Positions 3,445 through 19,768 of a stretch of DNA of 36,534 nt are shown in pieces (within the stretch, counting starts at the first letter, position 1; each line of letters opens with the position of its first letter). The notes under the pieces were generated by a model, which saw only the letters and a program-made list of their open reading frames with translations, was not told the DNA's origin and did no database searches. Made by a program: the position numbers and the translations under genes. The stretch spans positions 435,132-471,665 of the forward strand of contig JACQJR010000001.1 in assembly GCA_016204995.1 (NCBI GenBank), written 5' to 3'. Origin of the DNA: Candidatus Microgenomates bacterium. GTDB taxonomy: Bacteria > Patescibacteriota > Microgenomatia > UBA8517 > JACQJR01.

Positions 3445-4400
3445 CTCATCCTCTGCAGTCGCCAGCATGGGGTGAATTTCGGACTAAAACCGGTGTCAAA
3501 GTGGTGCGAGGTGATAACTTTCAAATTACCATTCATAAACTTCCTTTTACCTCCTGGACGATTGGCTATTTTCCTAAAGGGCCTCTACCGACTACTGAAA
3601 TGATTAGCCAACTTAAAAAAGTCGGCCGCGATAATCACTGCATTTTTATCCAGCTGGAGCCTAATGTTGAGAAAATTTCCAATTTCCAATTTCCAATTTC
3701 CAATTTGGGATTACGGCCTTCTACTAAACCTTTATTTTATCAGCATAGTTTTGTTATTGATTTAACCAAAAGTGAAGAAGAATTATTAGCCGCCATGCAT
3801 CCTAAAACCCGTTATAACATCCGCCTGGCTCAAAAACATGGCGTTAAGGTAGAAGAAAAAAGCGATGATAAGTCTTTTGCTACCTACCTCAAACTTTACT
3901 TTGAAACGGCTCAAAGACAAAAATATTTTGGCCACAGCGAAAGATTTCATAGGCTGATGTGGGAAACATTACAACCAACCGGAATTGCTCATTTACTCAT
4001 TGCTTACTACACTCCACCTTCTTCACCCATAATACATAATACAGATCCCCTAGCCCTGACAGCTTGGATGCTTTTTCATTACGGCGATACTCTTTATTAC
4101 GTTTACGGCGGTTCCAGTTCCGAGTATAAAAACGTCATGGCCAGTAATTTAGTAGCCTGGGAAGCCATCAAACTGGGTAAAAAATTAGGAGCAAAAAAAT
4201 TTGACTTGTGGGGCTCTTTAGGTCCAGATGCCGATCCCAAAAATCCCTGGTACGGCTTTCATAAATTTAAACAAGGTTATGGCGGAAAACTGGTAGAATA
4301 TATCGGCAGCTACGATTTAGTTTTAAATCCTTTTCTCTATTCTCTCTTTCATTTAATTGACAAATCCCGCTGGCTGATATTAAAAATAAAAACCTTTTAG
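3414..4400 (+). CDS. FemAB-family peptidoglycan interpeptide-bridge aminoacyltransferase-like protein
   Basis: HPLQSPAWGEFR, TRYNIRLAQKHGV, YYVYGGSS, NLVAWEAIKLGKKLGAKKFDLWG and WYGFHKFKQGYGG resemble the FemAB / lipid II glycyltransferase family. Overlaps the pcrA 3' end by 31 nt. Contains the translated heptamer array at 3674-3708. Confidence 0.8.
   Translation: MAGTTQKIRLTHPLQSPAWGEFRTKTGVKVVRGDNFQITIHKLPFTSWTIGYFPKGPLPTTEMISQLKKVGRDNHCIFIQLEPNVEKISNFQFPISNLGLRPSTKPLFYQHSFVIDLTKSEEELLAAMHPKTRYNIRLAQKHGVKVEEKSDDKSFATYLKLYFETAQRQKYFGHSERFHRLMWETLQPTGIAHLLIAYYTPPSSPIIHNTDPLALTAWMLFHYGDTLYYVYGGSSSEYKNVMASNLVAWEAIKLGKKLGAKKFDLWGSLGPDADPKNPWYGFHKFKQGYGGKLVEYIGSYDLVLNPFLYSLFHLIDKSRWLILKIKTF
3674..3708. 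repeat. Tandem heptamer array (AATTTCC x4 plus degenerate AATTTGG) inside the FemAB-family CDS
   Basis: Read directly: aatttcc aatttcc aatttcc aatttcc aatttgg. Translated as ISNFQFPISNLG. The same 30-nt core occurs at 28634-28663. Confidence 0.95.
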
Positions 4401-17600: not shown

Positions 17601-17671
17601 GGCCTCGTGGGAGAGTGGTTATCCAGCGGTCTGCAAAACCGCTTACACCGGTTCAATTCCGGTCGAGGCCT
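17601..17671 (+). tRNA. tRNA-Cys (anticodon GCA)
   Basis: Folded manually. Acceptor stem GGCCTCG/CGAGGCC (7 bp). Anticodon stem GCGGT/ACCGC with loop CTGCAAA. T arm ACCGG-TTCAATT-CCGGT. 4-nt variable loop, 3-bp D stem with GG in the loop, and discriminator U. No CCA is encoded. Confidence 0.9.
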
Positions 17672-17901
17672 CACAGGACAAAAGTGGGTTCAATCGCGCC
17701 CCTCGTGACTGGCGAAATACTTTGAGCCACCAAGCGAGGTAAGCGATATCGGTTTTCATAAACTGATATTCCCGCCTGCGCCTCTGGGAAAAGATGTCTG
17801 TCTAGCGGAGCTAGATCCTGCTCCGCAGGACAAAACAGCTATGCGCGGGTTTCTGGCGAAGCCAGATCTCGCTACGCGAGACGATTCCCGCTCGCGCCCC
17901 A
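17672..17901 (+). other. GC-rich structured non-coding island (candidate ncRNA, tRNA-like remnant or REP-like element)
   Basis: Two 30-nt double-hairpin units (17801-17830 and 17852-17881) differ only by compensatory pair changes and loop changes. A closing helix GCGCGGG/CTCGCGC is followed by C-CCA. CAGGACAAAA occurs as a direct repeat at 17674 and 17826. There is no credible ORF. Confidence 0.45.
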
Positions 17902-17946: not shown

Positions 17947-17975
17947 TTGACATGTTCTATAATTTATATTATAAT
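17947..17975 (+). promoter_or_regulatory. Consensus sigma70-type promoter (TTGACA-17 nt-TATAAT) upstream of the 18022 CDS
   Basis: TTGACA at 17947-17952 and TATAAT at 17970-17975, with an exact 17-nt spacer. Confidence 0.6.
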
Positions 17976-18021
17976 CCTTTATTAGAACCTTTAAAGGGGT
18001 TCTTTTTTTGAGCAAAATTAT

Positions 18022-18669
18022 ATGAACATCAGAATTTTCGTAGCGTCAATCTTGTTAACCCTAGTCGGGGCAGTCACTCTGTCTCAATTAGGATTTGTGC
18101 CTAGCGTGGGGGCTTTAGCTCCTCGCGGCGGCGGCTTGACTGAACCTATCACCCCTCCGATTACTACCTTTACTACTAGTGTTCGTGGCAATATCCAATA
18201 CCGTTTCTTAAACTATAAACCCGAACAAATTAAGGTCGCGCCAGGTGTGGAAGTATTTGTGACTAACTTCCCTTTGTTTGATGCCAAAAAGGCACCTCAA
18301 AGAGGCGGAGCCAATGGCTGGGCTAAAACTGATAAAAACGGCGATTATATCTTGACCTGGGAAGCTGAAGAAAATAAAACCTATTACATCTGGTTCTGGG
18401 ATAATAAAGGTACTACCTTTACGCCTAAACAATATGGCATCACCTTTGCCCCTCAAAGAGGAGGCAATACTCCAGTTTTTAATGCCGAAGGCAAAATCAA
18501 TTATTATTTAATTCTTTCTGAAATGAATAAAGCTTTTGGCGCCAACTCCTGGGAAGACCGCTATAATCCTCGCTATGATGCTGACAACAACTACATGATT
18601 GATATCTACGATACAGTGAGATTAAAAAACTTGCTGTTATTCAATTTGCCTGCTGGCGCCAGACGCTAA
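18022..18669 (+). CDS. Secreted protein with a carboxypeptidase-regulatory-like segment and a C-terminal dockerin/EF-hand-like repeat (hypothetical)
   Basis: Signal-peptide-like N-terminus. TDKNGDYIL is a prealbumin-fold-type motif. DADNNYMIDIYDTVRLKNLLL fits D-x-D-x-N-x-x-I-D-x-x-D. The motif AP(Q)RGG occurs three times. Confidence 0.55.
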   Translation: MNIRIFVASILLTLVGAVTLSQLGFVPSVGALAPRGGGLTEPITPPITTFTTSVRGNIQYRFLNYKPEQIKVAPGVEVFVTNFPLFDAKKAPQRGGANGWAKTDKNGDYILTWEAEENKTYYIWFWDNKGTTFTPKQYGITFAPQRGGNTPVFNAEGKINYYLILSEMNKAFGANSWEDRYNPRYDADNNYMIDIYDTVRLKNLLLFNLPAGARR

Positions 18670-18688
18670 ATTCTCCTACACTTAAAAG

Positions 18689-19768
18689 GTGGTAAGATTT
18701 ATTGCCCTCTTTCTGCTCTTTATTCTACCTCTAATTTTCGTTCCTTTTATTCCCTTTGGCTTTGAAACCCCCAAGGTAGTTATAGCTGAATTATTAATTG
18801 AAACTGGAATAGTAATAACTGTATTAAAAAAAGATTTCTCATTGAGGCACTTTCACCCGACACAACTCAAGCTAATTTTAGCCTTGATTATCCTGGCGGT
18901 ATTTCAGAGTATGTTAGGCCCTACCGACTTCTTAGGCAATGTTTTTCGTCATCAAGGAGTATTTTTGCTGTGGCATTTATTGCTATGGTCTTTAATGGCA
19001 ACTCAATTTGATCTGAAAATACCTAAAAACCTACCCCTAATTACTCTAGTTCTATTATTAACTTCAAGCGCGTTTCTATTAGGCGGCAACCAGGCTGGCC
19101 GGGCCTTTGGCACCCTAGGCGAGCCTAATGCCTTGGCTACCACCACTGTTTTTATCCTACCTTTTCTCCTTTTTAACTTAAAATGGTTTTACCCAATTTT
19201 AGGAGCAATTTTAGCCTTTGGCATCATCTTTCTCTCCGGCTCCAGATCAGGCTTGGAAGCCCTACTAACAGAGTTATTATTTTTAATTTTAATTAAAATA
19301 AGGCTGGCCACCACTAAGGCTTTTGCTGTTTGTCTTATTTTATTGGCTATCAGTCTGACTACTCCTTTAATTGAGGGTGGCAGTTGGTTTGAAAACCGGG
19401 CTGAAGTCTGGCAAACCGCTCTTCAATCTGGACTGGAGTCTCCCCTTTTTGGCCACGGTTTTGGCAATATGGAGCAGGCCTTCCACGAGACTGCTGTCAG
19501 ATTAAATAATAATATCCAGTATCAAGTGGTGGATTCTGCTCATAATTTCCTCTTGGACTGGTGGGTTCAAGGAGGAACTTTAGGATTGGTCATCTTTTTA
19601 TCCACCTTGAGTCTTTCCCTAAAAAACCTCCTGGTTAGGCATGATTTAGCTTTACTGGCCGCCAGCTTAGGCCTCCTAGTTAGCCTCTCTTTTAACCCTG
19701 TTTCTGTGGTCAATTTGGCAGCCTTCTGGTGGCTAATTGGCCAGGGTTTTAAAACCAGCCAAACTTGA
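18689..19768 (+). CDS. O-antigen ligase/polymerase-like (Wzy_C domain) membrane protein
   Basis: Polytopic protein. SGSRSGLEALL, HGFGN and AHNFLLDWWVQGGTLGLVIFL match the Wzy_C/WaaL-type pattern. GTG start. Confidence 0.7.
   Translation: MVRFIALFLLFILPLIFVPFIPFGFETPKVVIAELLIETGIVITVLKKDFSLRHFHPTQLKLILALIILAVFQSMLGPTDFLGNVFRHQGVFLLWHLLLWSLMATQFDLKIPKNLPLITLVLLLTSSAFLLGGNQAGRAFGTLGEPNALATTTVFILPFLLFNLKWFYPILGAILAFGIIFLSGSRSGLEALLTELLFLILIKIRLATTKAFAVCLILLAISLTTPLIEGGSWFENRAEVWQTALQSGLESPLFGHGFGNMEQAFHETAVRLNNNIQYQVVDSAHNFLLDWWVQGGTLGLVIFLSTLSLSLKNLLVRHDLALLAASLGLLVSLSFNPVSVVNLAAFWWLIGQGFKTSQT

Follow-up and report, generated by a model that had tools for sequence, protein, structure and literature searches.

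A GC-rich island behind a Microgenomates tRNA-Cys gene, probably a relic of broken tRNA-Cys copies interrupted by 30-bp double-hairpin elements

Introduction

How does a GC-rich, structured island without a plausible reading frame come to lie directly behind an intact tRNA gene? The question is raised by a stretch of 36,534 nucleotides from Candidatus Microgenomates bacterium (assembly GCA_016204995.1, contig JACQJR010000001.1, positions 435,132 to 471,665 of the forward strand), here called the window and numbered from its first letter. The window carries an intact tRNA-Cys gene (anticodon GCA) on the plus strand at 17601..17672, found by ARAGORN and scored at 62.8 bits by the Rfam tRNA model, and behind it, up to position 17901, an island with two 30-bp units that each consist of two abutting hairpins. 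A sequence-only reading of this island had drawn attention to compensatory differences between the two units and had offered three explanations: a non-coding RNA, structured or tRNA-like, that shares a transcript with tRNA-Cys; tRNA genes in decay or scars of integration at a tRNA locus; and DNA hairpins of the repetitive extragenic palindrome (REP) type. We compared the island with tRNA-Cys genes and with related loci from genomes and metagenomes (designated by L numbers), and conclude, with a probability of about 0.75, that it is a non-functional relic comprising one well-preserved and at least two decayed 3' parts of a tRNA-Cys.

An interrupted tRNA-Cys fragment

With both units excised, the island reads GATGT, CTG-CAAA, ACAGC, TATGC, GCGGG, TT-CGATT, CCCGC, TCGCGCC, C and CA (a hyphen in such strings marks the point of insertion of a unit), which are the anticodon arm, the variable loop, the T arm and the acceptor 3' strand of tRNA-Cys. 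A hidden Markov model (HMM) was built from 10 tRNA-Cys genes of the candidate phyla radiation (CPR) and run with nhmmer against the spliced and the unspliced island. The spliced island matches contiguously over positions 26-69 with 39 bits (E = 1e-13), whereas the match of the unspliced island is limited to a 21-nt middle piece with 12 bits.

The best-preserved copy (17793-17901) runs from the anticodon stem to the 3' end and is interrupted by two 30-bp elements. On the plus strand it begins within a stretch of spacer and tRNA-Cys 5'-side stub (17784..17800, from nhmmer on the spliced island), in which GATGT (17793-97) is the 5' strand of the anticodon stem and CTG (17798-800) represents positions 32-34; this layout recurs in L228, L217, L140, L251 and L037. 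Unit 1 (TCTAGCGGAGCTAGATCCTGCTCCGCAGGA, 17801..17830, no strand assigned) is inserted between G34 and C35 of the anticodon. Positions 35-55 follow on the plus strand at 17831..17851, composed of CAAA, the anticodon-stem 3' strand ACAGC, the variable loop TATGC, the T-stem 5' strand GCGGG and TT of the T loop. Unit 2 (TCTGGCGAAGCCAGATCTCGCTACGCGAGA, 17852..17881, again without strand) sits in the T loop between positions 55 and 56 (GGGTT-unit-CGATT), and positions 56-73 plus CA complete the copy on the plus strand at 17882..17901: CGATT, the T-stem 3' strand CCCGC, the acceptor 3' strand TCGCGCC, the discriminator C, and a trailing CA such as follows most CPR tRNA-Cys genes. Both tRNA pieces were delimited with nhmmer and with an alignment (A2) of the window module, homologous modules (L228_R1, L217_R, L140_R, L251, L167) and intact tRNAs. 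Unit 2 appears there as an exact 30-nt gap in L228_R1, L217_R, L140_R and the intact tRNAs, the site being filled in L251 and L167. The module of L228/L245 is 96% identical to window positions 17796-17850; its unit differs from unit 1 at two bases, and its T arm is uninterrupted.

The sequence-only reading had taken the helix GCGCGGG/CTCGCGC, which has one G-T pair and is directly followed by CCCA, for an acceptor stem with an encoded CCA. The letters are there; the helix itself, however, was a misreading of a T stem (GCGGG/CCCGC, 17845-49 / 17887-91) together with the acceptor 3' strand TCGCGCC (17892-98), the discriminator C, and CA. The fragment is no copy of the resident gene: its acceptor strand is TCGCGCC against CGAGGCC in the intact tRNA-Cys, and the T arm and the anticodon stem differ too. 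The TCGCGCC 3' half also occurs in L217/L253, and matching GGCGCGA 5' halves are found elsewhere, for example in L235.

A complete cloverleaf is not present in the island, where the 5' acceptor strand and the D arm are absent, and ARAGORN, in relaxed and intron modes, finds no second tRNA in it with unit 1, unit 2 or both removed. The anticodon loop and the T loop are not the uninterrupted 7-nt loops of a tRNA either, as 30-nt insertions split them between positions 34 and 35 and between positions 55 and 56. Since the 5' half is missing, the island is read as a relic. The functional gene is the tRNA-Cys at 17601..17672, and what lies downstream of it are relic modules.

Two further modules on the plus strand are decayed. 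The first, relic A (17674..17702), was recognised by reading the sequence, by a 10-nt direct repeat with 17826-17835, and by a weak nhmmer match of 17684-17694 to tRNA-Cys positions 48-58. It is composed of CAGGA (the final 5 nt of a unit), CAAAA (anticodon-loop positions 35-39), GTGGGTTCAAT (GTGGG TTCAAT, the T-stem 5' strand and T loop) and CGCGCCCC (the acceptor 3' strand), and appears to be the well-preserved module, copied without unit 2 and shortened by two deletions. The second, relic B (17768..17783), was recognised by a direct repeat with 17884-17898 and by a weak nhmmer alignment to tRNA-Cys positions 57-72. It reads ATTCCCGC CTGCGCC T, in which ATT is the 3' part of the T loop and CCCGC the T-stem 3' strand, followed by the acceptor 3' strand and a discriminator T. 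These remnants explain the 10-nt direct repeat (CAGGACAAAA, at 17674 and again at 17826, as had been pointed out) and three strings resembling tRNA 3' ends, including ATTCCCGCCTGCGCC at 17768 and ATTCCCGCTCGCGCC at 17884. Between relics A and B the fold of the plus-strand spacer (17703..17767) shows two hairpins: CCTCG..TGGC..GCCA..CGAGG, and an AT-rich hairpin whose 3' arm enters relic B by 2 nt. The latter had been given as 17745-17770; we place its arms at 17746-17769, with 10 bp. No similarity to the spacer was found among the fetched loci, except in the same organism.

All strings, repeats and hairpins listed by the sequence-only reading were located, as were both 30-nt units at their coordinates, and no reading frame of note was found in the island. 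The units differ at 8 positions (4, 8, 12, 18, 19, 23, 27 and 28), six of which form three compensated pairs (4:12, 18:28 and 19:27) while the other two are in loops. The unit pattern had no match in 100 shuffles of the window. The 36.5-kb window itself holds 15 perfect hairpins with a 6-bp stem and a 3-nt loop; stems of the form TCYNGC are found in four of them only, all from units 1 and 2, and these are the GC-richest of the 15. The window has two copies of the unit, both inside the island. The island sequence is identical across independent short-read assemblies from three sequencing runs, and is therefore not an assembly artefact. A separate observation is that independent short-read assemblies (L255-L260; four to five sequencing runs) all break within the intact tRNA-Cys, left contigs stopping at 17630 and right contigs beginning at 17613/17614, which suggests k-mers in common with other tRNA-Cys copies or population heterogeneity at the locus.

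A family of double-hairpin elements

The form of the element is two abutting 15-nt hairpins, each TCNNGC-NNN-GCNNGA (hyphens here set off the loop). One genome per species, 596 Gb altogether, was scanned with the pattern TCYNGCNNNGCNRGATCYNGCNNNGCNRGA, giving at least 120 loci and 133 listed matches, of which 81 have both stems perfect. By our estimate chance would account for about 9 positions in the 596 Gb, fewer than 1-2 of them perfect. Among the matches listed, the perfect units come almost entirely from CPR assemblies, and the imperfect ones are coding repeats in high-GC genomes. A metagenome scan for the tRNA-Cys anticodon site (CTG + TCNNGCNNNGCNNGATCNNGCNNNGCNNGA + CAAAA) gave at least 120 loci with at least 140 units, where far below one was expected. 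Both scans together bring the family to well over 200 units, nearly all of them in CPR. The search beyond the window that the sequence-only reading had suggested has yielded many such units, almost all in CPR bacteria, but it does not point to a conserved RNA gene.

The stems are held by complementarity. In 77 distinct metagenome units among the matches listed, 297 of the 308 stem positions that the pattern leaves free are Watson-Crick pairs (96%), and the mismatches (six G-T, three A-C) show no clear strand bias. An alignment of 79 units is 99.5% paired in the double-hairpin structure, with 125 double-sided changes against 35 in shuffles; stem position 4 shows four pair types, and all slid registers collapse. 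The covariation seen between units 1 and 2 is real, then, but it reflects a constraint on the entire element family rather than a conserved RNA gene at this locus: the two units presumably differ by compensatory changes because each family member must keep each half a perfect palindrome. The loops take part as well, in that positions 1 and 3 of the hairpin 1 loop complement positions 3 and 1 of the hairpin 2 loop in 86-87% of units, and both loop orders, purine-rich first and pyrimidine-rich first, are seen at one and the same tRNA site. The unit is a two-fold symmetric DNA element, usable in either orientation, which argues against selection on one RNA strand. As a whole, the element constitutes a widespread CPR family maintained by hairpin complementarity and overall two-fold symmetry.

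The flanks follow the same symmetry: among the genome-scan matches listed the preference is tTG-unit-CAa. Insertion sites resemble T(G/T)-C(A/G)A, and the insertions are precise, no target duplication having been seen. Filled and empty homologous sites can be compared in the T loop, in UvrB and in ornithine carbamoyltransferase (OTCase). Combining GC-rich hairpins, compensatory change, many copies, and filled and empty sites, the units have the marks of miniature palindromic insertion elements.

Part of the family resides in protein-coding genes. Of the perfect units in the genome-scan matches listed, 39 of 81 lie in long open frames, with in-frame host genes such as ValRS, RpoC, UvrB, IleRS, UvrC and ornithine carbamoyltransferase (L047, L016, L022, L028, L069 and L031). 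There the units encode 10-residue inserts rich in Ser, Gly, Ala and Arg. The UvrB unit encodes SGKAGSGSAG, an exact 10-residue insertion with conserved flanks when compared to a solved UvrB (PDB 9gy7), and the OTCase unit is an insertion of 9-10 residues relative to a solved structure. Some units, accordingly, are precise in-frame 10-codon insertions in housekeeping genes.

Some further observations concern the composition and the limits of the family. Pairs of hairpins with identical stems, giving perfect or nearly perfect 30-mer palindromes, make up 31 of 66 units in the general genome set and 2 of 72 at the tRNA-Cys site, and may reflect distinct sub-families or a lineage effect. Perfect units with AT-rich flanks are present in bins labelled 'uncultured Gammaproteobacteria' (L024, L025, L063, L071, L072, L084 and others), one of which (L024) holds a complete cassette of a GIY-YIG nuclease gene and tRNA-Cys; these are either mis-binned CPR DNA or an extension of the element beyond CPR. 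Viral contigs were considered as hosts and rejected: the 7 matches are imperfect and attributable to chance in DNA of high GC content. An identity with TIGR-Tas arrays, a repeat system associated with CPR, was rejected too, for the units stand singly and have no spacers. In literature searches no palindromic or hairpin elements like these units were found described for CPR bacteria.

The GIY-YIG nuclease and tRNA cassette

At many loci the units border a small mobile cassette, worked out completely in L163, L141, L249 and L228. Its order is: tRNA-Cys positions 1-34; a unit; CAAAAC and a short stub; an open reading frame (ORF) of 81-85 aa; an intact tRNA-Cys; a spacer that holds a copy of roughly positions 15-34; a second unit; and CAAAAC with the 3' half. 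The two junction units of one cassette have the same sequence or are 1 nt apart (L141, L249 and L163). The ORF is a stand-alone GIY-YIG catalytic domain (PF01541, E = 1e-17 to 1e-18), with 1zg2 (UPF0213) as nearest solved structure. Of the 120 metagenome loci listed, 85 contain this ORF. Among the 140 anticodon-site cases listed, 117 have an intact tRNA-Cys no more than 600 nt away, downstream in 64 and upstream in 53. Right-hand modules can form tandem arrays (L142, L159, L210 and L228). Additional units are inserted in other loops and stems of tRNA-Cys (GTGG-CGAAG, TAGC-CAAG, GTT-CGATT and GTG-CAATT): in 627 kb of metagenome loci there are 19 extra units, at least 13 of them within recognisable tRNA-Cys pieces and at most 6 elsewhere.

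As a control, GIY-YIG homologues were sampled irrespective of hairpins, which gave five distinct loci. In four of these five the start codon is preceded, at a distance of 10-70 nt, by a double hairpin that lies within a 5' fragment of a tRNA that then follows intact: tRNA-Cys in L263 and L264, tRNA-Leu in L261 and tRNA-Glu in L265. Cassette junctions almost always carry the element. Stems of other types occur in L264 (TCCCCC/GGGGGA) and L265 (TCACCC/GGGTGA), so the element family is broader than the search patterns used. A small GIY-YIG gene with a double hairpin in front of it and a broken copy of the 5' part of the tRNA was seen for tRNA-Leu in L261/L262 and for tRNA-Glu in L265/L266.

The gene is closely fitted to its tRNAs in several cassettes. 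In L163, L249 and L024 the intact tRNA begins directly at the stop codon of the gene or overlaps with it, so that processing of the tRNA 5' end would sever the mRNA no later than that codon; in L079 the stub left from the tRNA variable loop contains the start codon. No description of GIY-YIG/tRNA cassettes in CPR bacteria was found in literature searches, and where a 2024 survey of insertions in CPR rRNA refers to GIY-YIG ORFs, these are confined to rRNA genes.

Three states of the orthologous locus

The closest syntenic relatives (L001 and L003) have tRNA-Cys beside the PEGA gene and no island. In L263 the PEGA gene, the tRNA-Cys and the M23 peptidase gene stand in the same order as in the window, and the locus is occupied by a cassette. 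The motif GGGGTTTTGTGTTTTGAGG upstream of the window tRNA-Cys is common to all three orthologous loci (L001, L003 and L263). Comparison of the tRNA-Cys locus in relatives, which the sequence-only reading had proposed, consequently distinguishes three states at the orthologous PEGA / tRNA-Cys / M23 locus: empty (L001/L003), occupied (L263) and relic (the window). The site is polymorphic for presence and absence. Pfam scans of the window found no integrase, transposase or GIY-YIG gene, six-frame ORFs likewise held no GIY-YIG gene, and six-frame translation of the island itself gave no GIY-YIG remnant. With no GIY-YIG ORF at its site, the window is at most a relic and not a member of the cassette class. 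Of this cassette type it retains right-hand modules only, into which a second unit was secondarily inserted.

The explanation by decayed tRNA genes or integration scars was essentially correct: remnants of tRNA-Cys 3' halves make up the island, and homologous modules elsewhere border a mobile cassette, although the gene of that cassette is a GIY-YIG nuclease and not an integrase.

Alternative explanations

The units might instead be independent selfish palindromes with no tie to the GIY-YIG gene, accumulating in dispensable tRNA-Cys fragments that offer them a target (TG-CA in the anticodon loop; TT-CG or TG-CA in the T loop) and in which insertions are harmless. Unit 2, clearly a separate secondary insertion, speaks for this, as do the units in ORFs and intergenic DNA that have no GIY-YIG gene nearby and the agreement of the flank consensus tTG-unit-CAa with the tRNA-Cys anticodon loop CTG-CAAA. 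We hold it to be unlikely all the same, given the matching units at both junctions of one cassette, the unit upstream of the GIY-YIG gene in four of the five loci sampled blind to hairpins (with different tRNAs and positions), and the concentration of the extra units in tRNA-Cys pieces. Mobilisation of the units as REP or bacterial interspersed mosaic elements (BIME) by a Y1 transposase encoded elsewhere (of the REP-associated tyrosine transposase, RAYT, or IS200-IS605 type) is very improbable. There are true likenesses: REP/BIME are short GC-rich bacterial palindromes, often paired and presumably moved in trans by an enzyme of their own, and the units, too, are short GC-rich hairpin DNA, with an adjoining short motif and no target duplication, as in IS200/IS605. 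In contrast to REP/BIME, however, the hairpins abut, the whole unit is two-fold symmetric, and members of the family lie within ORFs; both flanks are constrained symmetrically, while IS200/IS605 constrains one side only; no Y1 transposase or RAYT was found in the window by Pfam scans, or in the inspected cassettes; and the two copies in 36.5 kb are both in the island. From the suggestion of REP-like hairpins there remains the large family of two-fold symmetric DNA palindromes with precise insertions, without the Y1/RAYT enzyme and with members inside genes. Scars of integrase-driven islands or prophages once seated in tRNA-Cys, with the tRNA-like pieces as attL/attR, are an equally remote prospect. 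Displaced arrays of tRNA 3' fragments are reportedly, after Williams in 2002, a classical integrase signature at anticodon-loop and T-loop sublocations, and the island does show an intact tRNA followed by partial 3' copies that start in the anticodon or T loop; moreover, two extra genes (a 215-aa ORF and Wzy_C) separate tRNA-Cys and M23 in the window compared to L001/L003. Yet those genes are not flanked by the fragments, which lie upstream of both, and the fragments are not copies of the resident 3' end (TCGCGCC versus CGAGGCC). The window has no integrase, the homologous loci carry a GIY-YIG nuclease, the whole insert of nuclease gene and tRNA is only about 400 bp, and every junction has a 30-bp double hairpin.

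The remaining alternatives concern RNA. A non-coding RNA with a function, structured or tRNA-like, that is transcribed together with tRNA-Cys and has the units as selected stem-loops (decoy, processing signal or 3' stabiliser), would agree with the folding of the island, for which the z-score against shuffles is -5.1 on the plus strand and -2.8 on the minus strand, with the absence of a terminator between the tRNA and the island, and with the recurrence in distant lineages (L037, L251 and L167) of a unit between positions 34 and 35 plus a T-loop unit. It was the first explanation offered by the sequence-only reading, and it is not supported; we regard it as improbable. The 5' acceptor strand and D arm are absent, ARAGORN stays blank even after splicing, and the closest syntenic relatives lack the island. 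Rfam families, both at the gathering threshold and at E <= 10, gave no match in the island, only the neighbouring tRNA-Cys being returned. In relatives the two strands of the anticodon stem do not retain their pairing across the unit, which fits chimeric junctions and not a selected RNA; the mismatches (6 against 3) show no clear strand bias; and the two-fold symmetric units occur in both orientations and are tolerated in protein-coding genes too. Known RNAs (tmRNA, RNase P RNA, SRP RNA, 6S RNA and Y RNA) were compared with the island by eye without a convincing match, in agreement with Rfam. As to introns, archaeal tRNAs have them in the anticodon loop and the T loop, exactly where units 1 and 2 sit, and a new bacterial type removed from the tRNA-Cys precursor might be imagined. 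This is extremely unlikely, for among the cases listed none of the 140 from metagenomes and none of the 81 from genomes yields a complete tRNA once the unit is excised, from which it follows that the units are not introns; in addition, an intact tRNA-Cys is close by in most anticodon-site cases (the 117 of 140 mentioned above), family members lie in-frame in protein-coding genes, Rfam gives no group I signal, and 30 nt are far too short for a group I core.

Against the relic interpretation itself several points must be weighed. The window has neither the GIY-YIG gene nor a left junction, so that its link to the cassette rests on the homology of its modules with L228, L217, L251 and L037. Relics A and B match tRNA-Cys weakly (nhmmer, E = 0.3-0.5), the spacer 17703-17767 is not accounted for, and the most decayed module adjoins the intact tRNA, which a simple history with the newest module nearest would not predict. 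Many units are far from any GIY-YIG gene, and among the 120 genome-scan loci listed just 8 possess one. The GIY-YIG protein is a catalytic domain only, without a DNA-binding domain, and the intact tRNA-Cys within the cassette keeps the anticodon arm of the broken copies, for which two reasons classical sequence-specific homing into the anticodon loop or arm is doubtful. Finally, the island is probably transcribed with tRNA-Cys as a trailer, there being no terminator between them; it probably has no function, although one such as 3' protection is conceivable.

A possible history of the locus

If the island is a relic of this kind, its history might be pictured as follows. A cassette of nuclease gene and replacement tRNA-Cys would have entered the resident tRNA-Cys of the lineage one or more times, and the old 3' half (acceptor TCGCGCC, whose pairing partner would be a GGCGCGA 5' half as in L235) would have been displaced downstream. 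The nuclease gene and the left junction would later have been lost, most simply via recombination between the directly repeated tRNA 5' parts, a loss that would have restored an intact tRNA-Cys at the ancestral promoter. Only right-hand modules would then have remained, one of which may have been duplicated and decayed, and unit 2 would represent a later, separate insertion of the same element.

A bolder extension of this history, which we put forward tentatively and consider possible rather than probable, is that the units are ultra-small non-autonomous mobile DNA made or moved by a minimal GIY-YIG nuclease that reads DNA shape. The nuclease would recognise the extruded double hairpin or loop and not a sequence. 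Its selfish cassette would repeatedly invade tRNA genes (Cys, Leu and Glu) and leave datable arrays of displaced tRNA halves, and the units would spread in trans to essential genes as harmless 10-residue linkers.

Comparison with known systems

In their behaviour the units may be likened to the double-hairpin elements (DHEs) found in mitochondria of Allomyces, to the GC clusters of yeast mitochondria and to the Rickettsia palindromic elements (RPEs), all of them small structured palindromes that spread and that genes tolerate. DHEs were reportedly described in Allomyces by Paquin, Laforest and Lang in 2000, and RPEs are said to go back to Ogata et al. in the same year. The former term is used in papers such as PMC4478555, for yeast GC clusters, and RPEs are mentioned in PMC10969869. 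Like DHEs and GC clusters, the units are short and GC-rich in an AT-rich genome, consist of two adjacent stem-loops, and conserve structure while varying in sequence; they have filled and empty sites, and are found in intergenic DNA, in structural RNA genes, and beside mobile endonuclease ORFs. Unlike them, the units belong to bacterial CPR hosts and not to organelles, are fixed at 30 bp (2 x 15), have GATC at the centre and unvarying TC..GC/GC..GA frames, and are frequently inserted in-frame in protein genes; and yeast GC clusters duplicate a short target, which was not seen for the units. This likeness is drawn from descriptions, and homology in sequence is not to be expected. With RPEs the units have in common that they are selfish palindromic DNA of a bacterium with a reduced genome, lying in-frame in protein and RNA genes without destroying them. 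RPEs, however, measure about 100-150 bp and form one long hairpin, and they are not known to be associated with a nuclease gene or with duplication of tRNA genes, whereas the units are 30-bp double hairpins.

The cassette, for its part, appears analogous to free-standing GIY-YIG endonuclease genes in tRNA clusters, such as segB of phage T4. According to PMC2330249, segB is a GIY-YIG nuclease gene among tRNA genes, inherited together with flanking tRNA and present or absent between relatives. A similar presence and absence between related genomes holds here, with L263 occupied and L001/L003 empty. The cassette protein differs in being only an 81-85 aa catalytic domain of the UPF0213 type without a DNA-binding domain, and the cassette in carrying a whole replacement tRNA and leaving the resident tRNA behind in broken copies that have double-hairpin units at their borders.

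The island points to a widespread mobile system in the most reduced bacterial genomes, of which literature searches found no description. The system joins a nuclease of ~83 residues and a replacement tRNA with double hairpins of 30 bp at its junctions. It explains odd GC-rich islands beside tRNA genes in CPR genomes and may also account for the breaks of short-read assemblies at tRNA-Cys. For annotation it calls for caution, as tRNA-like fragments and 10-residue inserts rich in Ser, Gly, Ala and Arg can originate from one small mobile palindrome. If the nuclease acts on the hairpins, this would be among the smallest structure-guided DNA mobility systems known, and the tandem displaced tRNA halves would then be a readable record of past invasions.

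Genomic context

The genes around the island are of the housekeeping kind and encode a glycosyltransferase 4, UbiA, PEGA/SH3, O-antigen-ligase-like and M23 peptidase proteins, tRNA synthetases, UvrD-like helicases, and GroEL. For the PEGA-domain protein, the best relatives share 58-59% identity and carry names of the Microgenomates type. Just 5' of the PEGA gene, L003 has an extra GC-rich palindromic stretch at 3935-3980 (cctgcctcgctcgcctcgcgtcgaagcgggccggcaggcagg) where L001 has a short hairpin; it may represent a further short palindromic insertion, though of another type. In L001, L003 and L263 the M23 peptidase gene directly follows tRNA-Cys, while the window has the 215-aa ORF and the O-antigen-ligase-like (Wzy_C) gene in between (18022-19768). 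Downstream of the island stand a perfect promoter (TTGACA-17-TATAAT, 17947-17975) and, within 9 nt of it, a terminator-like hairpin (17984-18003) with T7 (to 18009). They are followed by the ATG at 18022 of the 215-aa ORF, which has no Pfam match, and the promoter-hairpin stretch 17947-18021 could be a leader or an attenuator of this gene.

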